This document shows, in pieces, positions 19,301 through 38,400 of a DNA stretch of 64,000 nucleotides. The DNA comes from Pirellulales bacterium (GTDB taxonomy: Bacteria; Planctomycetota; Planctomycetia; Pirellulales; UBA1268). The translations under genes were made by a program, and so were the position numbers. The stretch spans positions 1,806-65,805 of the forward strand of contig JBIIGJ010000003.1 of assembly GCA_044236455.1 (NCBI GenBank), read 5' to 3'. The notes beneath the pieces were generated by a model that made no database searches, had not been told where the DNA came from, and saw only the letters and a program-made list of their open reading frames with translations. Each line of letters begins with the position of its first letter. Position 1 is the first letter of the stretch.

Positions 19301-20475
19301 CGTTCGGCCGCTCCCTGCAGGCCTTCACGGCACTCTCGGGCGGTGGGCTCGAACTGGCCGATCCGCTGCCGGCGCCGCTGGTGGTCCGCAGCCGGCGCGA
19401 TCAGGGACTGACCGTGGTGAGCATCGTGAATGCCGGGCCGGCCCCGTGTCTTGCCGGGCTCGCGCTCGCGGGCTTGCCGTCCGCCGTGGTTGACGCCGTC
19501 GACGGAACGCGGCTGCCGCTCGATCCCGCTGGTGCCGTGTCCGTGCCGCTGCAGCCGTGGGAGGTGCGCACGCTCGTGCTCGACGGAGGCGTGGCGGTGC
19601 AGGGTGCGCGGGTCGAATTCGACGACGAGGTGCGGCGGTCGATCGGCGAGCGACTGGCCGATCTGAGCCGCCGCCGTGGCGTGCTCGAGACACCGCGGCC
19701 GCTCGATGTGCTCGACAACCCGGGATTCGAACTGGACGGCCCGGCGGCCGCCGGTACCGATGCGGCCGGACGGACGCCCGGCGGCGCGATCGGAGGCTGG
19801 GAACTCGTCCAGGCCAGTCGCGGAACGGTCGCCTTCGTGCCGGGAGTCGACGGTGCTGCGGGCCGCGGGATCGGCTTCTCGTCGGTGAACGGCCTCTCGA
19901 CGCTGCGGAGCAATCCGTTTCCGCCGCCCTCCACGGGGCGGGTGAGCGTGGCCGTTTGGCTCCGCGTGGGAGAGGGAGAGCCGCAGCCGCCCCTGCGGCT
20001 GGCGCTCGAGGGCGTGGAGGAAGGCCGCGAGTATTACCGGTTTGCCACGGTAGGCGGGCTGGCCGGCGGCAAGCCGCTCACGCCAGGCTGGTCGCAGTTC
20101 GTGCTGCAGGTCGATGATCTGCCGGCCCACGGGCTGGAGTCGTTGCGGGTGCGGTTCGACCTGCTCGGTCCGGGCAGCGTCCAGATCGACGGCGTGCGGG
20201 TGTTCGACCTGGCGTTCGATGAATCGCAGCGTGTGCAGCTCTCGCGGCGGCTGTCGATGATGGAGCAGCGACTGGCGGCGGACGACTTGGGCTCGTGTCT
20301 GCTCGAACTCGACACGTATTGGCCGCGGTTCCTCGCCGCGTTTGTCTCCGATGACGCGGTGGCGGCGCTGCGAGAAGACTCGCTCCGTGCGACAGGCGGC
20401 CCGACGCAGGCTCCCGCCCCGGAGGCCGAGCGGTCGGGCAGCATGTTTGACCGTATGCGACGCTGGTGGCAGTAG
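16306..20475 (+). CDS. Large secreted protein (1389 aa), function unknown. It has a central glycoside-hydrolase-like region and a C-terminal CBM4/9-like beta-sandwich, judged by pattern only.
   Basis: The ATG at 16306 gives the signal peptide MVRSLSQSAARPVCCPRLFGSLLTMLALAAGWPLSAGGAQE. A Met/Pro/Ser/Val repeat lies at ~17340-17530. The C-terminal ..LDNPGFELDG...IGGWELV...VAVWLRV...VRVFDL matches the NGGFE..W pattern of CBM_4_9 modules. Confidence 0.8.
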   Translation: MVRSLSQSAARPVCCPRLFGSLLTMLALAAGWPLSAGGAQETTLSERPVTIRVNWGGGKARAWSGSIRLVPVEGDTNTAEDLQWQTLCGDADAAAAAHAVGGTIFVHEPSRRGSDGVELVIPRWRGARIAVRLFADGDERNASTFEADVAGLLLEAHQQPLDRDGNRLSLKAAPGDALRVEFISLATAAGSETSPSALFRPGETVRMAVDPLLPRRSPGSGAVELRMRLKVAAEAEPAVAQSLLLVEAGTAESSPAEPRLQGYERVYFDVPLPAREGAYDIELEAIERGGLRWSRPIASRTVQVVAVGDAVPDAIAAGSDRGEGWKVIHELDPGSPRLHERLRRLPGVGMSYVPMPAMPMPSMSLPNVSMPNVPLPSVPMPNVSMPKLPAVSLPSVSLQSVSAMVPKLSGLLATGHSTVEVHSLGPMLRLPPARSVDEPAWEGIVIAGAQPGLPHLVEVEFPLDQRAVVGVSVLETDAAGASVEIRSSGGFEVAPPVATAEGAKPAGLGRHGFVFWPTTRNPMILIANPSPQGAAVFGRVRVSAGPLRPPARAAGVASGSVTTTAGPGRRVHAYVPAPDFSQFGGPERAASGSGRSFADWKTFLSGATHAAEWFSSQGTAGAMVVVYREGAAIWPSRLTRGAPRWDSGVTSDAGLDPVRKDLLAMLCRIHAREGLRLLPAVSFDAPLPALERMLADGAAEAAGIVCVGRDGRPRQTDGGRGYHYNVLDPRVQQAVEDVVRELAGRLRGADAVDGLALVLPHDGWLHLPGTAWALDDATFSRFLAEVGGQVPAVGGVRFAHRAALVEGPLRDQWLAWRAEVVARFHSRLAAVLAEHGAGLSLHVVPTTLFAEGDLATRFRPSLAPEPADADVLREIGLDPGRITADRRIVFVSPHMHATAESLLDHCIVDNANRSLALARGAASAARRGVIALEQPRRMPVGQVVPHGPFGGAAAATETVPIHALPEGPSRGRHLAESLVAADVEMVFDMGLAFGRVEPAFGRSLQAFTALSGGGLELADPLPAPLVVRSRRDQGLTVVSIVNAGPAPCLAGLALAGLPSAVVDAVDGTRLPLDPAGAVSVPLQPWEVRTLVLDGGVAVQGARVEFDDEVRRSIGERLADLSRRRGVLETPRPLDVLDNPGFELDGPAAAGTDAAGRTPGGAIGGWELVQASRGTVAFVPGVDGAAGRGIGFSSVNGLSTLRSNPFPPPSTGRVSVAVWLRVGEGEPQPPLRLALEGVEEGREYYRFATVGGLAGGKPLTPGWSQFVLQVDDLPAHGLESLRVRFDLLGPGSVQIDGVRVFDLAFDESQRVQLSRRLSMMEQRLAADDLGSCLLELDTYWPRFLAAFVSDDAVAALREDSLRATGGPTQAPAPEAERSGSMFDRMRRWWQ

Positions 20476-21453: not shown

Positions 21454-21536
21454 GGAGGGTAAGCGAATTGGCCAGCGGTCTGACTCGAAATCAGATGCCC
21501 AGCAATGGGTTGTGGGTTCGAATCCCATGCCCTCCG
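21454..21536 (+). tRNA. tRNA-Ser (anticodon CGA), class II with long variable arm; D-arm non-canonical by eye
   Basis: The acceptor is GGAGGGT/GCCCTCC. The anticodon arm is TCTGA-CTCGAAA-TCAGA (anticodon CGA). The variable arm is TGCCCAGCAATGGGTTG. The T-arm is GTGGG-TTCGAAT-CCCAT, and the discriminator is G. I could not fold a 3-4 bp D-stem from AAGCGAATTGGCCAGCGG. A strong terminator immediately downstream on the same strand supports expression. Confidence 0.7.
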
Positions 21537-21546
21537 CCTTGCGGGT

Positions 21547-21594: not shown

Positions 21595-21855
21595 ATGCGC
21601 CGGCAGGGCTGGAGCCGGCCGGGGCCAGCCTGATCCGCAAGAAACGGTGCCGCATTTTGCAGGATGGCTTTGCAAAATAGGGCAGGTGCCAGCCGCCCTT
21701 CCCGTCGGCCCCACGCAAATGGCCCCTCTTTCAGCAGCCGCTCTTTTGCCACGGGTTTGGCATGCCGTGTGCTCGTCCACCGGAGTACCTTCGCCGGCGT
21801 ATTGCCCTCGAGGGTGTTTTCAGAGCCCGCACTGGTGGACGAGGAGGCATCTGGC

Positions 21856-22512
21856 ATGGCAACTTTCGCATCGCAGCATCGTCTCTCGAAGCCGTCTCGG
21901 ACCGATCACGGCGCCCGCGGGGAAGCCGAGCCGACCGACGAGGATCTGATTGGCCGGTTCCGCATCGCCGACGATGAGGAAGCCTTTGGTTCGCTCATGC
22001 AGCGGTATGAGCGGAAACTCTTCGGGTATCTGCGTCGCTATCTGGGCAATGCCGAGATGGCCGAGGACGTTTGCCAGGACACGTTTTTTCGCGTGCATCT
22101 GAAACGGCATTCTTTCGCGGACGGTCGGCGGTTTCGCCCCTGGCTGTATGCGATCGCCACCCATCAGGCCATCGACGCCAGTCGGCGTGCCCGACGCCAT
22201 CGGATGGTGCCCCTCGACAGCATTCCGCGGGGGGCCGACGACGGTGCAGCTCTCGTCGACATGATGTCGGGCGACGATGAGACGGCCAGCGATCGGGCCG
22301 AGCGGGAAGAGTCGAGCCGGTGGGTCTCCTCAGCGGTCCAGGAACTTCCCGAGCGAATGAGGCATCCCCTGTTTCTCGTGTATCACCAGGGGATGAAGCA
22401 CCGTGAGGTGGCAGACGCGTTGGGTATTCCCGTGGGCACCGTGAAGAGCCGCCTGCACACCGCGCTGCAAAGGCTGAACCGCTCGTGGCAGGACAGCGGT
22501 CGCCAGAATTGA
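21856..22512 (+). CDS. ECF-type RNA polymerase sigma-70 family factor
   Basis: The ATG at 21856 is preceded by GAGGAGG. Region 2 reads ..AFGSLMQRYERKLFGYLRRYLGNAEMAEDVCQDTFFRV..PWLYAIATHQAID. Region 4 reads ..LVYHQGMKHREVADALGIPVGTVKSRLHTALQRL. No anti-sigma-like gene follows. Confidence 0.9.
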   Translation: MATFASQHRLSKPSRTDHGARGEAEPTDEDLIGRFRIADDEEAFGSLMQRYERKLFGYLRRYLGNAEMAEDVCQDTFFRVHLKRHSFADGRRFRPWLYAIATHQAIDASRRARRHRMVPLDSIPRGADDGAALVDMMSGDDETASDRAEREESSRWVSSAVQELPERMRHPLFLVYHQGMKHREVADALGIPVGTVKSRLHTALQRLNRSWQDSGRQN

Positions 22513-22655
22513 CCGCGGTTCGGGGCTGACCGGACCCCATCGCCGGACGTTCGCGACGGCCATCCTGGCCGCCGCTTTCTGCGCCAGAAAAAAGCCCTGG
22601 AAGTTTTTTTACGGACAGCTAGACATATCTGAACGGATGGACACAATGGGCGGCC

Positions 22656-25600
22656 ATGAAGTCGTCACGGAAGAAGACATCGAGCGGCCCCGCCGCCGCG
22701 AACTGGCACAGGCTGGAGGTGGCGGTTCCGGAACGGAGTCAGCTCACGGTGGTCGCGGGCGGCCTGCCGGGCCGTGAGCCGCCGCAATCGAGCCGGCTCA
22801 TCGAGTCGATTGCCGCGGCCTGCCAGCCGGCGGCCCGGTTCGTTGCCGCCTGGCTCGTGGCGCCGTCTCGCCGCGTCGGGAACGAGTGGATCGAGACCCT
22901 GTCGCGGACGGGCCATCCGACCGCCAACCTCCACGTCACGACGCTTTCGGCCCTCGCCTACGACATCGTCTCCGAGTCGCTCACGCGGGAATCTCTCACG
23001 CTGGCGCCGCGACGGGCCCGGCTCGTTGCCGTGGAGCAGCTGCTCGTCGAGCATCGCGATCAGCTCCGTTCGTTCGCCGGCACCGGTGGCTCTCTTCAGC
23101 GGCTCGCCGAACGGGTGTTGCACAGCCTGGAATCGCTCCGGACCGCCGGCCTTACCGCTGCCGAGGTGACGCGGGGCCTGCGCATATCGGGCCGCGCATC
23201 CGACAAGGCCCACGACCTGGCCCTGCTCATGGATCGCTATGCCGCGAGGCTGCGGCAGATGAATCTGATCGACGTCGCCGGCGAGCTGAAACTCGCGGTG
23301 GAGCACGCCCGCGCAGGCACACTGCCCGAGTCGCTCGGTCGGCTGCTCGTGCCCGATGATCTCGATCCGCCACGGCTCGAAAAGGAATTGCTCGACGCCC
23401 TGCGGGACTCGCCGCGAGTCGAGGTGCAGATGCTGGCCACTGATCCTCCCGTGCCCGAGGTCGCCCTGTTTCCCGGTCTCGAACGCACGGCGATGTTTTG
23501 CGCGGCCGGTGCATCGAACGAGGTGCGGTTTGTGCTCCGCACCTGCCTTCGGCTGGGCCTGCGGCTCGACGAGGTGGAGGTGGTCCACGCCGACGCCTCC
23601 ACCTATCCCACACTGATCCGCGACATCGTGGCTGCGTTGCCGAGCGACGAAGGGGAGCGGCAGGGGGCTCGCCGGGCCGATCACCTGCCTGTCACGTTTG
23701 CCGAAGGTCTGCCGCTGGCCGATGCGAAGCCCGGCCGGGCGCTCGCGGCATGGATCGAGTGGCGCCGCGATGGCCATCCGCAATCAGGGCTCGAACGGAT
23801 GCTGCGGGATGGGCTGATCGAGCTCCGCGACAAGACCGCCGATGCGCCGCGGCCATCGGCGCTCGTCCGCGAGCTGCGGAGCGTGCGGGTCGGACGGGGG
23901 TTGGAACGCACGGTGGCGCTCGTGGCGGCAGCGGCGGCGCGGGTGCGGGAGCAGCCGCCTGCGTCGTTTGCCCGGGGCCGTCATGACGACGACGACTGGT
24001 CCGACGCTGGCGAGATTGGCGAAGAGCAGCTCGTGGCCCGCAAGCAACGCCACGTCGTGCTTTTGGGGGCCTTGCAGAAACTCACGCAGCAGCTGGCCGA
24101 CTGCGAAGGGGCCGCGGAGCCCACCGGCGAAACGGTGCTGCGCGGCGCCCGGACCTTCATCGACACGCTCTGCGTCTCCGAGAGTGAGTTCGACGGCAAT
24201 GCGCGGCGGCTGCTTCTCGACGAGATCGATGCGATGCTGGAGTGGCAGGGGGATCGTGGCGCAGCGAATGATCGTGAGATCCTCGACTGGCTCGAGCGAC
24301 TGCCGCAGGAATTGGTCGTGCTCGGGTCAGGGCCCAGGCCCGGTTGCCTGCATGTGAGTGCGCTGGGAACCGGCGGCCACTCGGGACGGCCCTACACCTT
24401 CGTGCTCGGCCTCGACGAGAACAGGTTTCCGGGAAGCGGCGCAACCGATCCGCTGTTGACCGACGGTGAGCGGACGCTCCTCAACGCAGCGCAGCCCGAC
24501 GCCCGGCTGACGGTGGCCCACGACGCAGCGGCGCGGAACCTGCTGTCGTGGCGGCGGCTCATGGGCCGGCTGCGCGGCCGCATCTGGCTGGGCTTCTCCT
24601 GCCGCGATACGGCCGAGGACGGGGAGGTGTTTCCGTCGCCCGTGCTTCTCTCGCTCTTCGCCGTGTCCACCGGGAATCCGCTGGCGAAGGTCGATGATCT
24701 GCTCAAGGCCTTGCCGCCCGCCGAGACGCTCGTTCCTACGGATCCGGAAGCGGCCTTGGATGAGACACAGTGGTGGCTCGCGTCGCTTGGCCTCCACGCC
24801 ACTCCATCGCAACTCGACGAGGCGCTGACTGCCCACCGCGGCCACCTCGCCCATGGCCAGACGGCCGAGACCGCCCGTTCATCGGATCAATTCACGCCGT
24901 ACGACGGCCATGTGCCGGCTGCGGGGCGGCTGCTCGATCCGCGGGCGGATCATGGGCGAGCGGCCTCGGCGAACAGCCTCGAGATGCTTGGAGGCTGTCC
25001 GCGGCGGTTCTTTTTTCGATATGGCCTCGGCATCGAGGCCCCCGAGACGTTTGACGACGACGCGGACCGCTGGCTCAACGCCCTCGACGCGGGCAGCCTG
25101 CTCCACACCGTGCTCGAGCGGTTCATGCGCGGCGTCATCGAGCGGGCGGAACTGCCCGAGGTCGAGCGGCATCTCGATGGACTGTTGGAGATTCTCGACG
25201 AGGAACTGGACGAGAGCCGTCGCAAGCATCCGCCGCTGACCGAGCTGTCATTCGCCGCCCGCCGCGCCGAAATGCAGCTGACGATGCAGACGTTTCTGCA
25301 CGACGAGGAACGCTCGTGCCGCGAAATGGGGCTGCGTCCGCTGGCCCTGGAAGTGGCGATTGGTGTCGAGCCCGGCGACAACGGCACCCCCTTCGACTGC
25401 CGCGATCCGGTGACCGTGACGCTTGCCCCCGGTGAGACGATCCGGCTTCGCGGCCGCATCGACCGGATCGACGTTCGCGACGACGGCACGGGTGGCTCCT
25501 CCTACACGCTGTGGGACTACAAGAGCGGCAGCGGCTTCGGGTTTCCGACGACCGGGGCCGACGATCCGTTTGTGGGCGGCCGCAAGCTCCAGCACGGGCT

Positions 25601-28600
25601 CTACGTCGTGATGCTGCACGAGCGGCTGGCGCCGGGCTCGGGACTGGCCGGCGGCAGCGTGGAAAGGTTTGGCTACTTCTTTCCCAGCCGCGCCGGCAAG
25701 GGACGGCGGCTGGCGTGGACAAGCACGCAACTCGAAGGCTGTGTCATGCTCGTTCGACAGTTGGCCGAGATCGCTTCGCATGGCACGTTTCTGCCGACGA
25801 GCAGTGCCGCCGACTGCACGCACTGCGACTTTGCGACGGTCTGCGGCGATCCGGCTCGCGTGACCCGCGACGCAGCCCGCAAGCTGGCCGCGTCGGAGTC
25901 GCTCCGGCAGCTGTTCGAGGGGCTGCGGGGCACGCCCCGACCCGCGACGGCCCCCGAGGTGAGGCGACCGCGGGCCGAGCCCTGGTCGCTCACACCGCAT
26001 CCGGCCGTTCCCGACACGCCCCCGGATGAGCCGACCAGGAAGCGTATTCGCGAGGATTTGGCCACGACACTGTTGGTCGAGGCAGCCGCGGGCACTGGCA
26101 AGACATCCTCGATGGTCGACCGGATGCTCGGGCTCGTGCGGACGGGCGTGGCCAGGCCGGAGTCGGTCGTGGCCGTCACGTTCACGAAGAAGGCGGCGGG
26201 CGAGCTTCGCCGTCGCTTCCGGGAGAAGTTGCAGCAGGCCGTGGCCACGACGAGTGATTCGACGGAGCAGCAGCGGCTGGCCGCGGCGCTTGAACGCATC
26301 GACCGCATGGTGATCGGCACGATTCATGCCTTCGCCGGACGGCTCCTGCGGGAGCGGCCGATCGAGGCGGGCGTCGATCCGGGCTTCCGAGAACTCGACG
26401 ACCCGGCCGATCGGCTGCTGCGTCGCCAGGCATGGCGCGAGTTCGTCACCGCTGCGCCGACCGATCATGCTGATCTCCTCGCCCGACTGGAGGCTGTCGG
26501 GCTGCGGCTCGGCGACTTCAGCCGACTGTTTCTCGACCGCTTTGCCACCTACGGCGACGTCGATGCCTGGCCGGCTCCCGAGACCCCCGCTCCCGACACC
26601 GGGCGGATCGTGGCGGAACTGGAGCCGTTTGTGAACGACATCGAGGCGGCTGAATTGTCGCCGTCGGCCGACCGGGGGACCGATGAACTGATGACGGCGC
26701 TCGAACAGTTTTCCCGAATGTTTCGCCGGTGCGACACGTCGTCGTCGGTGGCCGTGATGGATCTCCTCGGGGAACTCGACCGCGCGCCGAAAGTCATCCA
26801 GAAATACTGGCCGGGCGCCGGTGCCACCGATGCCGAGGTGAAGGCGGCCCGCAAGGCGGCGGCCGAGAGGTGGCAGGCCGCATGGGATGACATCGGGGAG
26901 CGGATCGTGCGGCCGGCGCTCTGGCAGTGGCGGGCGCATCGCTATCCGTTGGCGATCGCGACGCTGCAGGCGGCGTTGGCTGTCTATGACCGGCTTCGGG
27001 CCGAGCGCGGCGTCCTCTCGTTTCAGGATCTGCTCTGCAAGGCGGCGGGGCTGCTGGCCCGCTCGCCCGAGACACGCCGCAGCTTCCGCAGCCGCTACAC
27101 GCACATTCTCGTGGATGAGTTCCAGGACACCGACCCTGTGCAGGCCCAGTTGCTGCTGCTGCTCACGGCCTCGGACCCCGATGAAACCGACTGGCGGCGG
27201 TGCCGGCCCGTGCCCGGATCGCTCTTTGTCGTAGGGGATCCGAAGCAGTCGCTCTATCGCTTCCGCCGGGCCGACATCGTCACCTACGCAACAGTGAAGG
27301 AGATCATCGAGTCAGCCGGGGCGGTACTGGCACTCACGACGAACTTCCGCAGCAGGGGGGATCTCGTCGACTGGGCCAATGGCATCTTCCAGACGGAATT
27401 CCCATCCGCGCCCACGCTCCAATCGCCATCGTTCACTCCGAGCATCACCGGCCGCCAGGAACAGCCGGCGACGGGCGGCGCGGATCAGATGCATTGGCTC
27501 ACGGGAGTGCGGGCCCTGCGGTTCATGCGATCCGGCCATGCGGGCGACGCGTGGGCCGAACGGGAAGCAGGCGAAATCGCAGCGTTCATCCGCGGTGCCA
27601 TCGATGCGGGCTTCGCGGTGCCCCGCACGAAGTCGGAAACCGCCAAGGGTCTTTCCCCCGCCTGTCGGCCCGGCGACTTTCTGATCGTCGGCCGGGAGCG
27701 GAAGCATCTGGGCATCTACGCGAAGGCACTGCATGCGGCCGGGTTACCGGTGGATGTCACGGGCACGGTGGGCGAGGATCAGGCTGAGTCGCTCCGGAAC
27801 GTGAGTGATTGCCTGGCGGTGCTTGCCGACCCGGATGATCCCGTGGCGGCCCTGGCGCTGCTGCGCGGTGCTGTCTTCGGGTTCAGCGATGCCGATCTGC
27901 ATGCCTACAAGGTGCAGGGAGGTCGGTTCGGTGGCGGGATCGACGTGCCCGCCGGCCTGGAGCCGGCACTCCGGGAACGGTGCGAGGGCGCCCGCGACGC
28001 CCTGAATCGCTGGCGAAGGTGGGTGCGGCAGTTGCCCGTGGTTGCGGCAATCGAGCGGGTGATCGATGACGCTGGCCTCATGCTCATCGCCGCAGCGGCG
28101 GACGGCGAGGCAGGCCCGCGGGGTCGGGCTATCGCCGGACTGCTCCATAAATACCTGGAAACGATCCGCAGCGTTCGGCTCGACATCGTCTCCATCCACG
28201 ACTGCCTCGATCTCCTCGACGACATGGTAGATACGGCGACTCGTGCTGAGTTTGACCCGCTGTCGATCGACGCACCGTCGGTCGACCGTGTGCGGGTCAT
28301 GAACCTGCACAAGGCAAAGGGACTCGAGGCTCCGGTGGTGTTTCTCGCCGACTACCAGTGCCGCGAGGCCGGTGACAAGCCGGAGGACGGACCGTTCCTG
28401 CACATCGACCGCGCGGGCAACCGTACGGAGGGATGGCTCGCCGTGACCACGCCCGTCGGCCGTTCGCAGCGAATCGTCGCCGCTCCGCCGGGTTGGCCCG
28501 ATCTGTGTGCGCGGGAACGCGGCTTCGAGGCGGCCGAGCAGATCCGTCTCGATTACGTAGCGGCCACGCGGCCTGGGGCGTGCCTGGTCGTGTCGCTCTT

Positions 28601-29450
28601 CGAGAAGCACGATGCCGGCACGAAGTCGCGGCCCGAGTCGTTCAGGGCCGAGGGGGCCTGGCAGCGATTCGGTTCGTCGCTCGCGGATGCAGGTGATCTT
28701 CCGGATCCGGTCGTGGACGGCACCCGGACTGCCGGAGCCGCGGGATCTGTCGCCATCACTCCGCCAGCGGCACTTGGTGAAGGCCTCCGCCAGCGGTTCG
28801 CCACCTGCGCGCAGCCCACGTTCGCGCGGATCTCGCCCCGCGAGGTGCTGACGGAGCCTGCCGAGGGCATCCGATTCACCGGGCATGGGCTCGGGGAGCC
28901 GTGGGGCCGCGTGATCCACTGCCTGCTCGAGCTCGCGGCCCGCGATCCGAGGCTCGATCTCGAGGCAGCGGCTGCAATGGCGCTGTCGGCCGAGGAACTG
29001 TCGCCTGGCCACCTCGGGCGGGCCGTGGCAACCGTGCGGGACGTCATGGCGAGCGACGTCTGGCGGCGGTCGCAGGCCAGCGGTCAGCGGTATGTGGAAG
29101 TGCCGTTCTCGCTGCAGGTGCGGGGCGAGGACCTTCCAGAAAAGGTCCGCAGACTGTCTGGGGAGGGTGGGCCGCCGTTGCCGACGGTCGTGCGTGGCGT
29201 CATTGATCTCGTCTTTCTGGAGCCTGACGGCCCGCGGGAATCTGGCGGCGATCGGTGGACCGTCGTTGACTGGAAGACCGACTCCGTCACGGCGGCGAGC
29301 GAGTCGCTTCTCGAAGAGCATTACCGTCCCCAAGTCGAACTCTATGCCCATTGTTGGGCGGAGTGCTGGAGCCGCCTTCATGATCGATGGGTAGGAGCGA
29401 CCGAGACAATAAGCGACACTGCAGGCACGCATCCCGGAGAAACAATATGA
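22656..29450 (+). CDS. Single-chain AddB-AddA-type helicase-nuclease. An AddB-like half with a PD-(D/E)XK/Fe-S nuclease is fused to a UvrD/AddA-like SF1 helicase with a RecB-type nuclease.
   Basis: In the N-terminal half, Cys781 (GGCPRRFFFRYGL) plus C1054-x2-C-x5-C1063 (CTHCDFATVC) flank the nuclease motifs GRIDRID and LWDYKSG, which is the AddB iron-sulfur nuclease layout. The C-terminal half carries Walker A AAAGTGKTS (aa ~1143-1151), TFTKKAAGEL, IGTIHAF, ILVDEFQDTD, FVVGDPKQSLYRFRRAD, TTNFRS, VMNLHKAKGLE, and the terminal nuclease RGVIDLVFLE..WTVVDWKTD..YRPQVELYAHCW. Confidence 0.9.
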   Translation: MKSSRKKTSSGPAAANWHRLEVAVPERSQLTVVAGGLPGREPPQSSRLIESIAAACQPAARFVAAWLVAPSRRVGNEWIETLSRTGHPTANLHVTTLSALAYDIVSESLTRESLTLAPRRARLVAVEQLLVEHRDQLRSFAGTGGSLQRLAERVLHSLESLRTAGLTAAEVTRGLRISGRASDKAHDLALLMDRYAARLRQMNLIDVAGELKLAVEHARAGTLPESLGRLLVPDDLDPPRLEKELLDALRDSPRVEVQMLATDPPVPEVALFPGLERTAMFCAAGASNEVRFVLRTCLRLGLRLDEVEVVHADASTYPTLIRDIVAALPSDEGERQGARRADHLPVTFAEGLPLADAKPGRALAAWIEWRRDGHPQSGLERMLRDGLIELRDKTADAPRPSALVRELRSVRVGRGLERTVALVAAAAARVREQPPASFARGRHDDDDWSDAGEIGEEQLVARKQRHVVLLGALQKLTQQLADCEGAAEPTGETVLRGARTFIDTLCVSESEFDGNARRLLLDEIDAMLEWQGDRGAANDREILDWLERLPQELVVLGSGPRPGCLHVSALGTGGHSGRPYTFVLGLDENRFPGSGATDPLLTDGERTLLNAAQPDARLTVAHDAAARNLLSWRRLMGRLRGRIWLGFSCRDTAEDGEVFPSPVLLSLFAVSTGNPLAKVDDLLKALPPAETLVPTDPEAALDETQWWLASLGLHATPSQLDEALTAHRGHLAHGQTAETARSSDQFTPYDGHVPAAGRLLDPRADHGRAASANSLEMLGGCPRRFFFRYGLGIEAPETFDDDADRWLNALDAGSLLHTVLERFMRGVIERAELPEVERHLDGLLEILDEELDESRRKHPPLTELSFAARRAEMQLTMQTFLHDEERSCREMGLRPLALEVAIGVEPGDNGTPFDCRDPVTVTLAPGETIRLRGRIDRIDVRDDGTGGSSYTLWDYKSGSGFGFPTTGADDPFVGGRKLQHGLYVVMLHERLAPGSGLAGGSVERFGYFFPSRAGKGRRLAWTSTQLEGCVMLVRQLAEIASHGTFLPTSSAADCTHCDFATVCGDPARVTRDAARKLAASESLRQLFEGLRGTPRPATAPEVRRPRAEPWSLTPHPAVPDTPPDEPTRKRIREDLATTLLVEAAAGTGKTSSMVDRMLGLVRTGVARPESVVAVTFTKKAAGELRRRFREKLQQAVATTSDSTEQQRLAAALERIDRMVIGTIHAFAGRLLRERPIEAGVDPGFRELDDPADRLLRRQAWREFVTAAPTDHADLLARLEAVGLRLGDFSRLFLDRFATYGDVDAWPAPETPAPDTGRIVAELEPFVNDIEAAELSPSADRGTDELMTALEQFSRMFRRCDTSSSVAVMDLLGELDRAPKVIQKYWPGAGATDAEVKAARKAAAERWQAAWDDIGERIVRPALWQWRAHRYPLAIATLQAALAVYDRLRAERGVLSFQDLLCKAAGLLARSPETRRSFRSRYTHILVDEFQDTDPVQAQLLLLLTASDPDETDWRRCRPVPGSLFVVGDPKQSLYRFRRADIVTYATVKEIIESAGAVLALTTNFRSRGDLVDWANGIFQTEFPSAPTLQSPSFTPSITGRQEQPATGGADQMHWLTGVRALRFMRSGHAGDAWAEREAGEIAAFIRGAIDAGFAVPRTKSETAKGLSPACRPGDFLIVGRERKHLGIYAKALHAAGLPVDVTGTVGEDQAESLRNVSDCLAVLADPDDPVAALALLRGAVFGFSDADLHAYKVQGGRFGGGIDVPAGLEPALRERCEGARDALNRWRRWVRQLPVVAAIERVIDDAGLMLIAAAADGEAGPRGRAIAGLLHKYLETIRSVRLDIVSIHDCLDLLDDMVDTATRAEFDPLSIDAPSVDRVRVMNLHKAKGLEAPVVFLADYQCREAGDKPEDGPFLHIDRAGNRTEGWLAVTTPVGRSQRIVAAPPGWPDLCARERGFEAAEQIRLDYVAATRPGACLVVSLFEKHDAGTKSRPESFRAEGAWQRFGSSLADAGDLPDPVVDGTRTAGAAGSVAITPPAALGEGLRQRFATCAQPTFARISPREVLTEPAEGIRFTGHGLGEPWGRVIHCLLELAARDPRLDLEAAAAMALSAEELSPGHLGRAVATVRDVMASDVWRRSQASGQRYVEVPFSLQVRGEDLPEKVRRLSGEGGPPLPTVVRGVIDLVFLEPDGPRESGGDRWTVVDWKTDSVTAASESLLEEHYRPQVELYAHCWAECWSRLHDRWVGATETISDTAGTHPGETI

Positions 29451-30673
29451 CGACTCCCGCCGATCCAAAGATCACCTGCCCCCATTGCAAGAACGAGGTC
29501 CGGCTGACGGAGTCGCTGGCTGCGCCGCTGGTGGAGGCAACCCGCGAGCAATACGAGGCGAAGCTCCGGGCCGAACGCGCAACGATCGCCGCCGCGGAGG
29601 CGAAGAAGGCGAAGCTCGAACTCTCGGCTGAATTGGAACAGCGGGCGAAGGAGCTTGCGGATTTGAACACGGTGCTCGCGGAGCGGGACCGCAAGCTGGC
29701 GGAGGCGCAGAAAGCCCAGACCGATGCCATCCGCAAGCAGCGTGAACTCGACGACGCCAAGCGGGAGCTCGAACTGTCGATCGAGAAGCGGGTGCAGGAG
29801 TCGCTGGCCACGGCCCGCGAGCATGCGAAAAAAGAGGCCGAGACCGATCTCAAGCTGAAGATGGCCGAAAAAGAGCAGACGATCACGGCCATGCAGAGGC
29901 AGATCGAGGATCTCAAGCGGCGGGCCGAGCAGGGGTCGCAGCAGCTCCAGGGAGAGGTGCAGGAGCTCGAAATCGAGGCGGTGCTCAAGCAGTCGTTTCC
30001 AAGCGATGTCTTTGTGCCGGTGCCGAAGGGGGAGTTTGGCGGCGACTGTGTGCACAGGGTGGCCCGTGGCGACGGGCAGCCCTGCGGCACGATCCTCTGG
30101 GAATCGAAGCGAACAAAGAATTGGACCGACACCTGGCTGCCCAAGCTCCGTGATGATCAGCGGGCCGCGAAGGCCGACCTGGCGGTCATCGTGACCCATA
30201 CGCTGCCCAAGGGTGTCGAGACGTTCGGCCACGTCGACGGCATCTGGGTGACGGGCACGCGGACATTCGTGCCGCTGGCCATCGCCCTGCGGCACACGCT
30301 GCTCGAACTGTCGCTGGCCCGCCAGGCCGGCGAAGGACAACAGACGAAGATGGAACTTGTCTACCAATACCTGACCGGGCATCGTTTCAGGCAACGCGTG
30401 ACGGCGATCATCGAGAAGTTCGAGGAGATGCAGGCCGATCTCGTGAAGGAGCGGACCACGATGACCAAGCTCTGGGCGAAGCGGGAGATGCAGATTCAGG
30501 CCGTGTTGGCGGCGACGGCCGGCATGTACGGCGACCTGCAGGGCATCGCCGGTCAGGCGATCGAAACGATCGACGCGTTGGATATCTCCAGGCTTACCGC
30601 AGCCGGTGGGCCCACGCTCGGCCACGCCGAGGCCGAGAAGGCGGGGGCCGGGCAGGCTCGGACTCAGGCGTGA
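29447..30673 (+). CDS. DUF2130-type protein with an N-terminal zinc-ribbon-like CxxC, a long coiled coil, and a C-terminal D...ExK nuclease-like core
   Basis: The ATG at 29447 overlaps the upstream TGA (ATGA). The protein reads MTTPADPKITCPHCKNEVRLTESLAAPL.., followed by a K/E/A/L-rich coiled coil. The C-terminal region reads ..EIEAVLKQSFP..GEFGGDCVHRV..GTILWESKRTKNW..DLAVIVTHTLPKG... Confidence 0.85.
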   Translation: MTTPADPKITCPHCKNEVRLTESLAAPLVEATREQYEAKLRAERATIAAAEAKKAKLELSAELEQRAKELADLNTVLAERDRKLAEAQKAQTDAIRKQRELDDAKRELELSIEKRVQESLATAREHAKKEAETDLKLKMAEKEQTITAMQRQIEDLKRRAEQGSQQLQGEVQELEIEAVLKQSFPSDVFVPVPKGEFGGDCVHRVARGDGQPCGTILWESKRTKNWTDTWLPKLRDDQRAAKADLAVIVTHTLPKGVETFGHVDGIWVTGTRTFVPLAIALRHTLLELSLARQAGEGQQTKMELVYQYLTGHRFRQRVTAIIEKFEEMQADLVKERTTMTKLWAKREMQIQAVLAATAGMYGDLQGIAGQAIETIDALDISRLTAAGGPTLGHAEAEKAGAGQARTQA

Positions 30674-32070
30674 TCGCCCGCGCGAGTGGGGGGCGGGTGA
30701 TCAGCCCCGGCCCCTTCGCCTGCGATCCCCTCGAGTTCCTTCCGAACGAGGTCAAGAAAGAGACGGGCACCCGCGTGCGGGTCGGGGTGCGCGGAGCAGA
30801 GGCAGCAGAGTGCCAAGCGGCCCGCATAAGTCGTCACCCCGATCGACGCGCGGGTTTGTGGCCGTAGCGGCGGCACGCCGAGAGAACCTTGAATCACCAG
30901 ATCGGCCGGAGCGTCGCAGCCGTCTACCTTGCCAACTCCGGACCGCATCCGTCGGCTGGGGTCACCGATATTGCTCACCACCACGGTCGAGATGCAGAGC
31001 GGGAGCCGGGTTGTCAGCCTGAGCAGCCACGGCCAGCGGGCGAGAAAGGCAATGGCATCGAGAAAAAAAGCTGCGGCATTATGGTCGAGAATCCAGCGAG
31101 TGGCCGTGGCGATGGAGGTCGCGAGTTCGTGGGCCTTGGTGCACTGGGCGGCCGTGCGGTCGAGAAAGGCATAGCCAAGGTTGTTGTTCGCAGGCTCACG
31201 CTGTCCGGGCTGACGGAGGTTGACCGGCATCGTCACCCGCACGTTGCCCGGCCGTCGTCCGGCGTGTGTATTCCAGGCGACCGCCGCACGCATCACGGCG
31301 GCGATGATGCTGTCGTTGAGCGACACGCCGCCCGCCGACGCCGCCACCCGCAGGCGATCGGTGGACGCCTGGTCGAAATCGAGCCACATGTAGGGGGGCG
31401 AGCGGGGATCGCACTTCGAATCGACCGCCGGTGAATCAACGCTGGTCGTTACGCGTGCCAGGGGGGTGGGCCAGAAGCTGGCAAACGACCATGCCTCTCG
31501 CGCCATGTCCTGGCCACCGTTGGCCGAGGGTGACTCCGGAGTATTTTCGGCAGGTGGCCCGATTCGCACTGCCCGCGGCGGCGAGAACGTTCTCGGCTGG
31601 ATGCCGGCATACGACGCCCAGATGTCTCCCACAAACTCGCAGCCAGCCACGCCGTCGCAGGCCGAATGATGTATCTGGAAGACCACGCGATGCCCGTGTT
31701 CATCATCGCAGAGCACCACGACTCGCACCCCGCTCTCGCGACGGAGATCGAATGATCGCCACAAGTCGCTCCCGCGTGCTGAAGGGTTCCAGATCACCGT
31801 GGGCAGCACGTCGGGGGTGAGCCAGACGGGATGGCCCTTGTCAGTGCCCACCCGGCTGCAGAGGAGCGGGTGTCGCCGGGCCGCCATTTCCACCGCCTCC
31901 CGGAACCGGTCTTGCTGAAGGGGGCCGGAGACCAGGTTTTCCAGAAAGAAGCACATCGGATGACCCGGGCGGTCGTCGATGAGCATCAGCTGCTCGAACG
32001 GGGTCAGCGGCCGCCCGGCCGTGGGCGAGGCCGGTTCGGCGGAAAAACGGTGCGCAGAGAGGGCGGCCAT
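30664..32070 (-). CDS. Stand-alone condensation/PapA-type acyltransferase (HHxxxDG family)
   Basis: From the ATG (complement of 32068-32070) the protein reads MAALSAHRF..RPLTPFEQLMLIDD... The catalytic motif is FQIHHSACDGVAGCEF. The protein is 468 aa. It is divergent from the PKS gene, and its stop overlaps the DUF2130 stop region by 10 nt (convergent). Confidence 0.8.
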   Translation of the reverse strand: MAALSAHRFSAEPASPTAGRPLTPFEQLMLIDDRPGHPMCFFLENLVSGPLQQDRFREAVEMAARRHPLLCSRVGTDKGHPVWLTPDVLPTVIWNPSARGSDLWRSFDLRRESGVRVVVLCDDEHGHRVVFQIHHSACDGVAGCEFVGDIWASYAGIQPRTFSPPRAVRIGPPAENTPESPSANGGQDMAREAWSFASFWPTPLARVTTSVDSPAVDSKCDPRSPPYMWLDFDQASTDRLRVAASAGGVSLNDSIIAAVMRAAVAWNTHAGRRPGNVRVTMPVNLRQPGQREPANNNLGYAFLDRTAAQCTKAHELATSIATATRWILDHNAAAFFLDAIAFLARWPWLLRLTTRLPLCISTVVVSNIGDPSRRMRSGVGKVDGCDAPADLVIQGSLGVPPLRPQTRASIGVTTYAGRLALCCLCSAHPDPHAGARLFLDLVRKELEGIAGEGAGADHPPPTRAGDHA

Positions 32071-32162
32071 GAGGGTTGTGAGGATACCTTCACCGCCGCG
32101 GTACCGCGAATTCGCCCGGGAAAAGCTGGCTGGAGCCGTCTTCCCCCCCGGGGTCGAAATCG

Positions 32163-32190
32163 TTGACACACAGCCCCTGCCAAGCATACT
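32163..32190 (+). promoter_or_regulatory. Sigma-70-like promoter candidate for the PKS operon
   Basis: TTGACA (32163-32168), a 16-nt spacer, then CATACT (32185-32190). The motif lies ~210 nt upstream of the PKS start. The same TTGACA/nATACT pattern occurs upstream of rho and of the gene at 60573. Confidence 0.4.
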
Positions 32191-32403
32191 GCGGACCTCG
32201 GCAGCCGGTGGCCGGGCTTCGGCCCCGTCGCTTGGCATCTCCCACGGATGGGTCGTTTTTCGCCAAGGCGAACTGACTCGTGTAATCCATCCAACTTCCA
32301 TATCCGACTTGCCCCCGGTGCAGGCTGCACTGTCGGCACGCTTCCACGCGCGCTGTTCGGGAGAGAGTCGCTGGCCTCACGATAGACGACAAGGACGACG
32401 ACT

Positions 32404-35400
32404 TTGAAGGACTCGCTGGCAATCGTCGGCATGGCATGCCGACTCCCGGGCGCTGATGGTCTCGATGCATTCTGGCGGCTGGTGGCGGAGGGCCGGACGG
32501 CCTGGGGCCCTCTGCCCGAGTCACGTTTTTCCCGCGACCTCTACTTTCACCCCGAAAAGAGTCGGGTCGGCAAGAGCTATTCTGAGATGGGCGCCGTTGT
32601 GTCCGACCGACCGGTCGATCCGACAGTCTGTCCGATCACGCCCGCAATGCTCTCGCAGTACGACGTCGCCCACCACATCTTCCTAGAGGTGGCGTCGCTG
32701 GCCTGCCGCGATGCCGGTATGGATCCATTCGCGATGCCAGCCGATCGGCGGACAGGTGTCTACGTCGGCCATACCGGCGGCAGCACGAAGATCGGCGACC
32801 TTGTCTACTCGACCGGCATCGATGAGGCGGCGGCCCTGCTTTCCGAGGTGGACGCGGCGCGGGCGCTCCTTGGCGAAGACGTGGACGCTGTCAGTGCCGA
32901 GGTGACTGCGGCCGTCAGGAAGCGGTATCCCGGGCGGAAGCCGGGCGAGAATCTTGATCTCGGGGCGATCGGCGCCGCCAAGATCGTGCAGGAGGCGCTG
33001 CAGCTCGACGGCCCGTATCTCGTCGTCGACGCAGCCTGCGCCTCGTCGCTGCAGGCGATGGCGATCGGCGCGAGGGCACTGCTACAGGGTGGCATCGACC
33101 AGGCCATCGTCGGCGGAGCCTCCTACTGCAAGTCGGACAGCCTCGTGCTCTTCTCCGCGGCCCAGTCGGTGAGCAACGTCGGGTCGTGCCCGTTCGGCGA
33201 GGCCGCCGACGGCCTGATCACGGCCGAGGGCTACGTGGCGCTCGTCATCAAGACGCTGTCCCGGGCGATCGCCGACGGCGACCGCATTCGCGCGGTGATC
33301 CGCGGCCTGGGCGTGGCCAGCGACGGCAAGGGAAAAAGCCTCTGGGCGCCGCGGCAGGAGGGGCAGGTGCTCGCCGTCGAGCGGGCCTATCCCGACGCGA
33401 CCGACATTGGGCGCATCGAATACATCGAGGCGCATGCCACGAGCACGCAGGTGGGCGATGCCACCGAACTCGGCGCGCTGTCGCGGCTGATGGCGAAACA
33501 CCTGCCTGCGGGCCGACAAATCCCGATCGGGAGCGTGAAAGCCAACATCGGCCACACGCTGGAGACGGCCGGCATCGCCAGTCTCGTGAAGGTGGTGCTC
33601 GCCATGGAGCACGGTGCGATTCCGCCTGGGTCCACCTGCGATGAATTGAACGGGGAATTCGACTGGAAGAACGGCCCCTTCACGGTGCCGAAGGCACCGC
33701 TTGCGTGGCCGGCCCATGTTGATGGCTCGCCGCGGTGCGCGGCGGTGAATGCTTTCGGCATCGGCGGGCTCAATGTCCACGTCTCGCTTGCGGAGCACGT
33801 GCGGGCAACGCGGCATGCCGCACCGACGGCTGCGTCCGCCGCGGATGACGATGCCATCGCGATCGTGGGCGCCGGCTGCGTGTTGCCCGGCGCCCTCACG
33901 CTTGAGGCGTTCTTCGATCGGCTCGAGCGAGGTGAGACGGCGATCGGCCCCGTGCCCTCCGACCGTTGGCTGGCGGGGCGGGCCCTCGACGCCTCCGGAC
34001 CGCGGACGTGGCACGCCATGGCCGATCAGGGCGGATTCGTCCGCGATTTCAACTACGACTGGCGGCGGCACAAGGTGCCCCCGAAGCAGATCGCTGCCGC
34101 CAATCCGCTGCAGTTCATGCTGCTGGAAGCAGCCGATGCCGCCATCGCCGACGCCGGCGGGCCCCAGGCGGGGCTCGAGCGGACGCGGACCGGCGTCGTG
34201 GTGGGCACGCTGTTCGGTGGTGAGTTTGCCAATCAACTGCAGATGGGGCTGCGACTGCCGGAGACGGGCCGCTTTCTGCGCGACGCGCTCGCGAGACGCG
34301 GCGTGGCAGCCGCCGAGATCGACCGAATCGTCGATGCCTACGAAAAGAAGGTGCTCGAGCGGCTGCCGGCACTCGTGGACGAGACGGGCAGTTTCACGAG
34401 CAGCACGCTGGCCAGCCGGCTCACGAAGACGTTCGATCTCATGGGGGGTGCACTGGCGCTCGACTCCGGCGACTGCTCCAGCCTTTCGGCCCTCTCCGCC
34501 GCCGTCGACATGCTCCGCGAGCGGGCATGCGATGCGGTGATCTGCGCCGCGGGCGACCGGTCGATGGACCTGATGGCCTACGAAGGGCGATCGCTCGGCC
34601 GGCTGCTTTCCAAGGCGCCTGTCTCGGTGCTCGATGGACGGACGAGCGGCGGCGCCGTGCCGGGCGAAGGCGCCGTGGTGCTCGTTCTGAAGCGTCTGGC
34701 GGACGCACGTGCGGCGGGCAACACGATCCGCGGCGTGATCCGTGGCGTGGCCGTAGGATCAGGCCGCTCGGTGTCCGAGGCGGCCCGCCGGGTGGTCCGT
34801 GAGGCCTGTGAACGCGCGGTGATCGATCCTGCTGCGGTCGGCGCGGTGGAGGTGGCGATCTCCGCAGGCCATGCGAACAGCGGCGAGGAACTGGTGGCGC
34901 TTGGTGGCCACTACGCCGGATCGGATGCCGCTGGCGAGACGGCCGTCGCCGGCTCGCTGGACGGGCTCATCGGTCACGTCGGTGCCGCCGCCGGTGCCGC
35001 GGGCCTGTTGAAACTCTCGCGGGCGCTTGCAGCCGGCGCGTTGCCGGGAACGGCGGCGCTCTCAGCGGACCGTGCGCAGGTGCACGGGCTCGTGGCGGCA
35101 CGGTCGTCCATGCCGGTTCGCCCGGTCGATGCGGCAGGCTGTCGCGTGGGAACCGTGACCGTGGCCCAGGATCGGCAGGTTGCCCATGCCGTGATCGACA
35201 ATGGTCTCGCGGTGCCGGAAGCTGCGCGGCCGCGGCCCGTCGGCTTGGCGACTGTTCGTGGACCGTCACCCCAGCGGGCTGCGTGTTCGCACGCCGTCGG
35301 GCGTCCGCTGGTGGCGGCCATCTTCCCGGGGCAGGGCTCGCAATACACCGACATGTTCCGCGGGCTCGTGGATGAGTCGTCCGATGCCCGTGCGGTGCTC

Positions 35401-38400
35401 GGTCAGCTCGACAGCATGGCGCGAGCGGCCGGCCGTGAGACGCTCGCCGAGATCGCCTGGCGACCTGACAACGGTCTGGGCACGAGGATCTGGGATACCC
35501 AGTGGGCGATGTATCTGGGCGACCTGCTCGCCTGGGGTGTCTTGCAGGACATGGGTTTCAAGCCCGACGTCGTCGCCAGCCACAGTTTCGGCGAGTTTCC
35601 CTCGCTCGCTGCCGTGGGAGCGTGGAGCGTCGAAGACGGGGCGCGGGCGACCAAGGCCCGCGCCGATGCCGTCGAGCGGCACGGACCGCGGAATGGTGCC
35701 ATGCTCTCGGTGATCGCGGATCGGGCGACGGTGCAGTCGGCGATCGAGCCGTTCACCGGACAGGTCTGGGTCTGTGCCGAAAATGCACCCGAGCAGGCCG
35801 TGATCGGTGGCACGGCCCGGATCGTGGACGCGGTGGAGGTGATCCTCGAATCACGGAGGGTCAAATCGAAGCGGCTCGCCGTGCCGAGCCCCTTCCATAC
35901 ACCGCTGCTCGCGGCCGCGTCAGACGAACTCGCGGCCACGATCCGCAGCCTTCCGATCGCAACGCCGCGGATCACGACCTACAGCAGTACGACGACGGAA
36001 TTGCTGACCCGGTCGGCGGACATCCACGACAGCCTGATTCGCCAGATGACCGAGACGGTCCGCTGGGTGTCGGTCGTCGAGAAGCTCTACGAGGCGGGGG
36101 CGCGCACGTTCGTGGAAGTTGGTCCCTCGGGCGTGCTCACCGGCCTCACGCGGCGAATTCTGGAGGGCCGCGAGGGCGTAACCTTCCTGCAGTTTGACCA
36201 GCGCGGTCGCTCGCCGCGGGAGCATCTCGCGAGGCTGGGGGAGCAACTGGCGGCTGCAGGAGCACTCGGCGGCGGAGCGTCGCAGGAGAGGGTCGCAACG
36301 CCATCGCAGCCGCGGCAGCTGGGACGGATCGTGTCGTTCGATGCGACCACGCGTCGGCGCGAACGCAACCGCTCGGGCGGGGCGGCCCCCCGTGGCGCCA
36401 CGAGGCCGGTCGAGATGGCGGCGCACGAGGAGGTTGGACGCAACAGCAACGGTCGCGTGCATCGTGAGCCCGCGGCGCCGCAGCCGGCTGCGGTCGCGAC
36501 GCAGGTGCTCGAACCGGTGGCAGAGCCGACGAGTCGGCTCGCGGCCCTCGTGCAGGAACAGCCGGCCACCGGAACAGAGGCTTTCTATCTGGAGGACGCC
36601 ATCGCCGAACTGCTGACGGAAGCGGGCATCGAACCGCCGCTCATGCGGGCTGGTGGAGCGAGCCGTGGAGTGCAGACGTTTCTCGACAGTGCGACTCACC
36701 TGTTCGAAATTACCGCAGACGATCATTCGGCGATCCTCTCGGCGGCATCGCGCGACGCGCTCTGCGACGTGCTCGCCCGGTCGGGCGGCAAGTCCCGGTG
36801 GTTGTCCCGCAAACCGGCGAAAGAAGGGCCGGCGGCCGCGGAGCTGGAAGCCTTCCTGATCGACTTCGTGGTGGAGCAGACGGGGTATCCGCGAGAGATC
36901 GTGGAACTTGATGCCGATCTCGAGGCGGACCTCGGGATCGACAGCATCCGCAAGGCACAACTCTTCGGTGAGATCGGCCAGAAGTATGGGCTGACGGCTG
37001 ATGACAGCGTGTCGCTCGATGAGTTCCCCACGCTGCGTCACCTGCTCGGCTACATGCTGCCCCGCGTGGGCGGGAAGTCGGCATCGTCGTCGGCCACGCT
37101 TGTCGAGCCGTCTGCCGTGCCGGCGAATGGTCACGCGGCCAACGGCCATGCCGGCAATGGTCACGTCGCGAATGGTCACGCCCAGCGAACGGCTGCGGTC
37201 GCCCCCGCACCAGCCACTTCGGTTTCAGCCGACGACGGCCTGGTAAAGGAGCTGGAAGCCTTCCTGATCGACTTCGTGGTGGAGCAGACGGGGTATCCGC
37301 GAGAGATCGTGGAACTTGATGCCGATCTCGAGGCGGACCTCGGGATCGACAGCATCCGCAAGGCACAACTCTTCGGTGAGATCGGCCAGAAGTATGGGCT
37401 GACGGCTGATGACAGCGTGTCGCTCGATGAGTTCCCCACGCTGCGTCACCTGCTCGGCTACATGCTGCCCCGCGTGGGCGGGAAGTCGGCATCGTCGTCG
37501 GCCACGCTTGTCGAGCCGTCTGCCGTGCCGGCGAATGGTCACGCGGCCAACGGCCATGCCGGCAATGGTCACGTCGCGAATGGTCACGCCCAGCGAACGG
37601 CTGCGGTCGCCCCCGCACCAGCCACTTCGGTTTCAGCCGACGACGGCCTGGTAAAGGAGCTGGAAGCCTTCCTGATCGACTTCGTGGTGGAGCAGACGGG
37701 GTATCCGCGAGAGATCGTGGAACTTGATGCCGATCTCGAGGCGGACCTCGGGATCGACAGCATCCGCAAGGCACAACTCTTCGGTGAGATCGGCCAGAAG
37801 TATGGGCTGACGGCTGATGACAGCGTGTCGCTCGATGAATTTCCCACGCTGCGTCACCTGCTCGGCTACATGCTGCCCCGCGTGGGCGGAAAGTCGGCAC
37901 CGCGGTGGGCGGCGCCGGCCAAGACGATTGTGGACCGCGGGGAATACTTCGATCGCGGTCTGCGAAGCGGCCGGGAACATGCCGTGGTCATCCGTCTCTG
38001 GGCGAGGCAGATCGCGGCCGGTGGAGTGGCGACACGGCCGACCGGCCTTGATCCGGCCCTCGACGAGGAACTCACCGGCATTGCCGAGGGGGCGGGCGTC
38101 GATGCGGACATCATCGCGGCCGCCTTCGCCGATCCGGCAGCGGCGCTCGGTGGCTGCGACGCGATGATCGTCGCACCGGTCGAAACGGCTGCTGATGCAC
38201 GTGGGCTGCTCGTCTGCTTCGGCCGACATGCCGAGCCTGCTGCGAGATGCTTCGAGGCCAATGGCCTGCGTGGGACACTCGTCGGCGTCAGGGGATTGCC
38301 CGGCGCTGTCGTGGGCTGGAATCAAGCTGGTCTCGTCGCGACGATCAGCCGCGGAAACGCGACGCATGCGCCGGTGGCTTGTATAGTCGAACGGGTTGTG

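Follow-up and report, generated by a model that had tools for sequence, protein, structure and literature searches.

The 64,000-nucleotide stretch analysed here (hereafter the window; positions 1,806 to 65,805 of the forward strand of contig JBIIGJ010000003.1, GenBank assembly GCA_044236455.1, Pirellulales bacterium) carries a fused addB-addA gene at positions 22656..29450 (+). The gene is a single open reading frame (ORF) with an ATG start, 2264 codons, a TGA and no internal stop, and its assignment draws on this uninterrupted frame, Pfam matches, homologue clusters, GTDB loci and a Logan contig. A weak sigma-70-like promoter match, TAGACA-16-CACAAT (22620..22647, +), lies directly 5' of the ATG and is a consensus match only. 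Pfam matches in the product comprised PDDEXK_1 in two stretches, UvrD-helicase, AAA_19 and UvrD_C, and all 2264 amino acids (aa) contain one Walker A site. An initial annotation, which was made from the sequence without database searches, had described AddB and AddA joined in one 2264-aa chain by a Pro/Arg/Ala-rich linker near nt 25950-26040; the uninterrupted ORF and every motif quoted there were recovered, and the linker was located at nt 25917-26027.

All features of the gene lie on the plus strand. An N-terminal extension with a conserved W..[IL]E..VP motif (aa 1-~45; 22656..22790), delimited by alignment, an AlphaFold2 (AF2) model and comparison with stand-alone relatives, precedes a motor-dead, AddB-like helicase-fold scaffold (aa ~46-769; 22791..24962), which was assigned from the AF2 model, PDB structure matches and a motif scan. 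Motif scanning showed that the P-loop position of this scaffold reads WLVAPSRRVG without GK[ST] (22851-22880), and it also detected a vestigial motif-V-like sequence, GGHSGRPYTFVLGLDENRFPG (24372-24434). The AddB-type PD-(D/E)XK nuclease domain that follows (aa 770-1063; 24963..25844; Pfam, alignment) has the 1+3 cysteine pattern of an iron-sulfur (Fe-S) nuclease: Cys781 (24996-24998) is part of GGCPRRFF (aa 779-786), and the motifs GRIDRID (aa 933-939; 25452-25472) and DYK (aa 954-956; 25515-25523) are followed by the CxxCx5C sequence CTHCDFATVC (aa 1054-1063; 25815-25844). The linker (aa ~1088-1124; 25917..26027), recognised in the alignment and as a low-confidence coil in the model, leads into an AddA-type superfamily 1A (SF1A) helicase (26028..28832), which was assigned from Pfam, NCBIfam, a PDB profile match and the motif scan. 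Its motifs are I, AAAGTGKT, the single Walker A site (aa 1143-1150; 26082-26105); II, DEFQDTD (aa 1487-1493; 27114-27134); III, GDPKQSLYRFRRA (aa 1527-1539; 27234-27272); IV, TNFRS (aa 1562-1566; 27339-27353); V, HKAKGLE (aa 1885-1891; 28308-28328); and VI, YVAATRP (aa 1967-1973; 28554-28574). The chain ends in an AddA/RecB-type PD-(D/E)XK nuclease domain with approximate boundaries (28833..29447; Pfam, alignment) that includes GVIDLVF (aa 2181-2187; 29196-29216), VDWKTD (aa 2204-2209; 29265-29282) and QVELY (aa 2226-2230; 29331-29345).

Among 5.8 billion proteins searched, 68 clusters of 2200-2300 aa and 35-97% identity cover 95-100% of the query, and in an alignment of 18 homologues from these clusters the junction was collinear and free of stops. 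Scanning one genome per GTDB species with a profile of the N half gave 79 loci, of which 36 are fused in one frame without a stop, 37 consist of two ORFs and 6 are cut before the junction. The 36 fused loci originate from unrelated projects and assemblers. The closest one, L001, belongs to a 'Pirellulales bacterium' metagenome-assembled genome (MAG) from Lake Mendota, has 86% identity and shares the neighbouring genes. Moreover, the identical 2264-aa product was called on an independent Sequence Read Archive assembly (Logan SRR27335591) and the identical protein is also present on dozens of JGI/ENA contigs. Thus, two points raised by the initial annotation, a possible artefact at the junction and the spread of the fusion, are answered by the independent assembly together with the loci fused in frame, and by the cluster and locus counts, respectively.

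The C half was identified as AddA. In a comparison of the family profile with the PDB it matched Bacillus subtilis AddA (3u44_A) over its full length with an E-value of 8.6e-59, ahead of UvrD, AdnB and RecB, and the NCBIfam model addA_alphas aligned with it end to end. Pfam detected UvrD-helicase at an E-value of 7e-51 as well as AAA_19 and UvrD_C. All SF1A motifs I-VI were located and are invariant in the 18 homologues, as are D2184, D2205, K2207, Q2226 and Y2230 of the C-terminal RecB-family PD-(D/E)XK nuclease. This bears out the view of the initial annotation that the C-terminal half forms a complete AddA/UvrD-type SF1 helicase with a RecB-type nuclease. The scores were below the NCBIfam equivalog thresholds, with 193.8 bits for addA_Gpos (cut-off 707.65) and 188.4 bits for addA_alphas (cut-off 860.75).

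The sequence signal of the N half was weak. The profile matched AddB 3u44_B with an E-value of 0.0021 at profile positions 558-937, addB_Gpos reached 30.3 bits within the nuclease domain only (cut-off 903.7), the alpha-type addB model of NCBIfam did not match the fused protein, and phmmer with the N half alone against the PDB produced only noise, so that a profile and then a structure model were needed. Because of this weak sequence evidence the N half was modelled with AF2, which gave a predicted local distance difference test score (pLDDT) of 68 and a predicted template modelling score (pTM) of 0.51. When this model was compared with the PDB by Foldseek, the top 5 matches were all AddB chains (E ~1e-22 to 1e-23), followed by RecC (4e-16) and AdnA (5.5e-16). 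The best match, 4ceh_B, had an E-value of 2.3e-23, ~1120 aligned columns of 1148 and a template modelling score (TM) of ~0.47. PDDEXK_1 spans aa 770-1063, and C781, C1054, C1057 and C1063 as well as D936, D954 and K956 are invariant in the homologues. At the P-loop position the model shows a strand-loop-helix without GK[ST], and this degeneration is common to the whole subfamily, fused and unfused, with the consensus WLxAPSxRxGxQW. A Walker A motif is present in only 'a large subset' of AddB proteins (PMC3064778), and therefore its absence does not disqualify the N half as AddB.

These structural matches support an AddB-like N half, modelled as an AddB/RecC-type scaffold without a motor that carries a PD-(D/E)XK nuclease. 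Both statements of the initial annotation on this half, its AddB-like nature and its degenerate ATP-binding site, are upheld by the full-length AddB matches, the invariant cysteines and nuclease triad, and the subfamily-wide lack of a Walker A motif. The outcome that it had named as damaging, profile searches showing the N half not to be AddB-like, was not what we found: AddB 3u44_B was matched, if weakly, and the model matches AddB best. The nuclease shows the four-cysteine Fe-S pattern, from which a cluster is predicted. As a stand-alone relative (P0097) likewise scored under the NCBIfam equivalog cut-offs, the low scores extend beyond the fused proteins, and they therefore indicate a separate, uncharacterised AddAB-like subfamily.

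To place the fusion among its relatives, the N-half profile was searched exhaustively with HMMER against 1.84 billion representatives; 16,534 relatives reached E<=1e-3, of which 2,290 reached E<=1e-30. The 150 best comprise 3 fused proteins (2261-2273 aa), and the rest, about 145, are stand-alone proteins, mostly of ~1000-1100 aa with a few shorter fragments. In the 37 unfused loci an addA-like gene directly follows the addB-like gene, and in many of them the addB stop overlaps the addA ATG, in an ATGA-type arrangement or by 8-14 nt, which indicates translational coupling. The B-then-A order was hence correctly described in the initial annotation as retained without a stop, the unfused relatives being adjacent addB-like and addA-like genes with overlapping stop and start. 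The unfused loci are labelled as other Planctomycetota, Verrucomicrobiia, Actinomycetota, Omnitrophota, Gemmatimonadota, Rokubacteria, Glassbacteria and Desulfomonilales. The stand-alone B relatives are called 'ATP-dependent helicase/nuclease subunit B' by JGI and 'PD-(D/E)XK nuclease family protein' by NCBI; proteins of the fused family are labelled generically by public pipelines, as 'subunit A' or 'UvrD-helicase domain-containing protein'.

Separate neighbour-joining trees for the two halves were congruent and placed the window together with 31 fused loci in one clade, which comprises two subclades of at least 62% and of ~41% identity to the window. One fused outlier seen on 3 contigs (P0068; 2237 aa, 35% identity), whose linker differs and is longer, groups outside the main clade and may represent a second fusion event. 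The ancestral state is two genes. The fusion would have arisen where the two genes were translationally coupled, when the addB stop was lost and the frame restored, whereby the former AddB tail and the N-terminal tail of AddA would have become a ~35-residue coil and the 1:1 pairing of the subunits covalent.

Several side observations were made in the course of this survey. Three unverified singletons from unrelated lineages, P0083 (2316 aa), P0070 (1825 aa) and P0077 (1917 aa), also show a PD-(D/E)XK domain followed by a UvrD-helicase, and P0083 in addition carries an N-terminal AAA_19 helicase domain, resembling the AdnA-AdnB arrangement. In a branch of unfused AddB-like proteins from twelve loci, mostly in MAGs labelled Actinomycetota, the C-terminal CxxCx5C is replaced (e.g. 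'DVSISDFRAYFGD' in L038); the nuclease motifs are kept in all of them and the upstream cysteine in most, not in L039 and L046. Judged by its sequences, this branch resembles an AddB variant without Fe-S. In L066, a groundwater Planctomycetota MAG, the addB-like and addA-like genes are separated by a spacer (13219-13545) with several tandem repeats of ~45 nt (agtgaagcttgggcccgtcgcacagcgacggggctrcttcgg) that look palindromic and resemble a repetitive extragenic palindromic (REP) element. Furthermore, several MAGs with clearly planctomycete-type fused genes were labelled 'Candidatus Kuenenia sp.', 'Chitinophagaceae', 'Rickettsiales' or 'Actinomycetota', which looks like placeholder or mis-binned taxonomy, and the phylum labels of individual loci need care.

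The linker was characterised with a second model covering aa 760-1560, built from a 30-sequence alignment (pLDDT 83.6, pTM 0.69), in which the AddB nuclease and the AddA 1A/1B regions were well folded. The linker (aa ~1088-1124), rich in Pro, Arg and Ala, was devoid of secondary structure, with pLDDT below 50 at aa 1094-1106. Its GC content at third codon positions was 0.80-0.96 compared to an ORF mean of 0.81, and the ratio of nonsynonymous to synonymous substitution rates (dN/dS) of the 37-codon linker core was 0.13-0.47 in ten pairwise comparisons; the flankB values for pairs with the window, L001 and L014 were unreliable due to an indel upstream and were disregarded. The last cysteine and the AddA Walker A are exactly 77 residues apart in all members of the subclade with at least 52% identity, and in the subclade of at least 62% identity the linker follows the semi-conserved pattern RRPxxxPLxLTPHPxxPxxPPDE. 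The linker is thus translated and under constraint. On its two sides the tail of unfused AddB (..LxPFRELR..) and the N-terminus of AddA (..PPDxxxRxxIxxxL..LVEAAAGTGKT) are recognisable, suggesting that the linker represents two former tails that were joined when the stop was lost and the frame restored. The N-terminal extension, modelled with pLDDT below 50 at aa 1-~45, is present in both fused subclades and absent from the stand-alone relatives and from P0068.

The unstructured nature of the linker leads to the question whether the cell nevertheless makes two subunits from the one ORF, by an internal restart or by cleavage of the linker, with an ordinary heterodimer as the working enzyme. The coil with pLDDT below 50 at aa 1094-1106 could be accessible to proteases, and the window sequence has a GTG codon at V1102. 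However, this position is L, I, P or R in homologues and thus not kept as a start, and in the subclade of at least 62% identity the linker core (aa ~1088-1124) contains neither a Met nor a conserved internal start codon. Moreover, the linker is of fixed length, carries the semi-conserved LTPHP motif and is under purifying selection, which speaks for a function within the chain. We therefore consider production of two subunits improbable and regard the single chain as the probable product.

The best characterised counterpart of this single chain is B. subtilis AddAB (PDB 3U4Q, 3U44, 4CEH, 4CEI, 4CEJ), to which the C half is closest in sequence and the N half closest in structure. In both, the AddA part has one SF1A motor and a nuclease, the AddB part combines a helicase fold without motor activity with a PD-(D/E)XK nuclease between 1+3 cysteines, and B precedes A in the gene order. 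In contrast to the B. subtilis enzyme, the protein encoded in the window is one polypeptide with a ~35-residue coil between the halves, its AddB part lacks the Walker A motif, which in B. subtilis AddB stabilises the Chi complex (PMC3064778), and its N half has only ~15% identity to B. subtilis AddB in the structural alignment. All domain features of AddAB were found in the fused protein, and the sole departure concerns the provision of two separate subunits by adjacent addB and addA genes, an organisation absent from the fused protein and 36 loci but present in 37 distant loci. The stand-alone pairs (other Planctomycetota, Verrucomicrobiia, Actinomycetota, Omnitrophota and others) are members of the subfamily of the fused protein, to which both halves align along their full length at 28-39% identity, and share with it the degenerate P-loop, the GGHSGRP motif and the nuclease motifs. 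They differ from it in consisting of two genes with overlapping stop and start, named helicase/nuclease subunits B and A by JGI, and in lacking the N-terminal extension, and the Actinomycetota-labelled branch also lacks CxxCx5C.

Two other helicase-nuclease systems were considered. In RecBCD, RecB resembles the C half and RecC was the second-best structural match of the N half. Characterised RecC has neither a nuclease active site nor Fe-S cysteines, and RecBCD requires the RecD motor; a RecBCD/RecC-like reading was ruled out since the N half keeps the invariant nuclease triad and the Fe-S cysteines. The absence of ATPase motifs is common to RecC (PMC4614115) and the N half. The mycobacterial AdnAB is a heterodimer of two UvrD-like helicase-nuclease subunits, of which AdnA was the third-best structural match of the N half. 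In AdnAB, helicase motor motifs are present in both subunits, and both nucleases lack an Fe-S cluster. The single Walker A and the four invariant cysteines of the fused protein ruled out an AdnAB-like reading; at the P-loop position of the N half, all relatives show APSRRVG. A natural AddB-AddA fusion or an AddAB in Planctomycetes was not found described in the literature searched, a scope that did not extend to the distribution survey of Cromie 2009.

With one motor, two nucleases and an Fe-S pattern on the B nuclease, the fused protein has the architecture reported for AddAB (PMC4614115). By analogy to the characterised enzymes (PMC3064778, PMC4614115), the fused protein would bind a duplex end, with the AddA part as the sole motor moving 3'->5' on the 3'-ended strand, which would be cut by its own nuclease. 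The AddB part would take up and cut the 5' strand and scan the 3' strand for a species-specific Chi, after which a 3' single-stranded tail would be left for RecA.

Altogether, these data argue that the fusion is genuine, conserved and vertically inherited, and that the gene encodes a single-chain helicase-nuclease of AddAB type, which most likely resects DNA ends in a clade of freshwater Pirellulales-type planctomycetes. We assign a probability of about 0.85 to this interpretation. Several points weigh against it. Confidence in the N-half model is only moderate (pLDDT 68, TM ~0.47 to AddB), and the scores are far under the NCBIfam addA and addB equivalog cut-offs (194 versus 708 and 30 versus 904 bits). 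All fused sequences come from MAGs or metagenomes and no isolate was seen; when the N-half profile was run in another, word-indexed protein search, only 17 matches and no isolate genome were returned. The search for another RecBCD or AddAB covers the 64-kb window only, in which tblastn with both halves detected no second AddA/AddB-like gene and no search aimed at RecD was made. Furthermore, an ATP-dependent, Chi-regulated end resection is proposed by analogy, as are the activity, the Fe-S cluster and the Chi response themselves.

The surroundings of the gene were inspected for signs of a specialised function. Upstream, a tRNA-Ser(CGA) gene (21454-21538) and an ECF-type (extracytoplasmic function) sigma factor gene (21664-22512) are present as reported in the initial annotation, which took them as hints of accessory status. 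Downstream, the ATG of a gene encoding a 408-aa DUF2130 protein (29447..30673, +) overlaps the TGA of the fused gene (ATGA), an arrangement suggesting that the two are probably co-translated. The DUF2130 protein gave a weak match to coiled coils of the structural maintenance of chromosomes (SMC) type, and the family counts among the PD-(D/E)XK superfamily members of unknown function (PMC3424549). The overlap, the presence of DUF2130 downstream in 13 loci, this nuclease-superfamily membership and the upstream sigma factor and tRNA would fit a specialised or accessory system, for example one directed against foreign DNA, in which the fused protein acts with DUF2130 instead of in housekeeping resection. 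However, the DUF2130 linkage is limited to the subclade of at least 62% identity, and in the ~41% subclade, where a conserved downstream partner was looked for, none was found. In four of the related loci that hold a homologue of the sigma factor (L006, L008, L010, L011), it lies upstream on the opposite strand, and its linkage is therefore not fixed. Moreover, the GC content of the fused gene equals that of its flanks, the neighbouring genes are syntenic in the closest relatives, and inheritance is clade-wise with congruent half-trees. Searches for N-half relatives returned none from phage records and one weak, partial match from plasmid collections. Hence, the evidence found in the 64-kb window and among the relatives does not point to accessory or mobile status, the hint given in the initial annotation is not borne out, and we judge an accessory system very improbable compared to a housekeeping AddAB-type enzyme.

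That a lost stop or a frameshift merely joins two ordinary genes, addB and addA, has a probability close to nil: although unfused pairs overlap by only 4-14 nt, such that a single indel could fuse them in silico, and the B-to-A-type singletons P0083, P0070 and P0077 from other lineages could be such artefacts, this explanation is effectively refuted by 36 loci from unrelated projects and assemblers, 68 clusters down to 35% identity, the identical ORF in the independent Logan assembly, a junction of constant 77-aa length with dN/dS below 0.5, and the clade formed by the fused set in both half-trees.

The single-chain enzyme is a modest variation on the well-known AddAB machine. The view of how AddAB works is unchanged, and since subunit fusions are common the finding is of modest importance. 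Nevertheless, a natural covalent AddB-AddA chain provides Rosetta-stone evidence, by which poorly annotated pairs of a 'PD-(D/E)XK nuclease family protein' and a 'UvrD-helicase domain protein' in Planctomycetota, Verrucomicrobiota, Actinomycetota and others are confirmed as AddAB-type partners. It also illustrates how a translationally coupled gene pair can become a fused gene in a simple way, and supplies an enzyme with one chain, one motor, two nucleases and a fixed 1:1 composition, ready for use in expression, single-molecule and structural work. A rather unlikely extension is that the fusion could be more than a tether, with three features that changed alongside it in this clade, the 77-residue LTPHP junction, the new N-terminal extension and the translationally coupled DUF2130 of one subclade, together forming a re-wired end-processing machine. 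If so, the linker or the extension might serve as an intramolecular latch or a partner-docking site, DUF2130 might be an accessory subunit, and regulation could differ from that of Chi-controlled AddAB.

Two further features of the window were noted. At 32404-41307 (+) it encodes a 2967-aa polyketide/polyunsaturated fatty acid (PUFA)-synthase-like protein with ketosynthase (KS), acyltransferase (AT), acyl carrier protein (ACP) repeat, ketoreductase (KR) and dehydratase (DH) domains in the order KS-AT-ACP repeats-KR-DH. Flanking ORFs at 30664-32301 (-), 41831-43135 (+) and 43900-45429 (+) encode a PapA_C-like acyltransferase, a Rieske ring-hydroxylating oxygenase and a NAD_binding_4 reductase, and these genes may constitute a lipid or polyketide biosynthetic cluster. 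Upstream of the fused gene, a 1401-aa ORF without a Pfam match (16270-20475, +) has counterparts of ~78% identity at the same position in L001 and L014.

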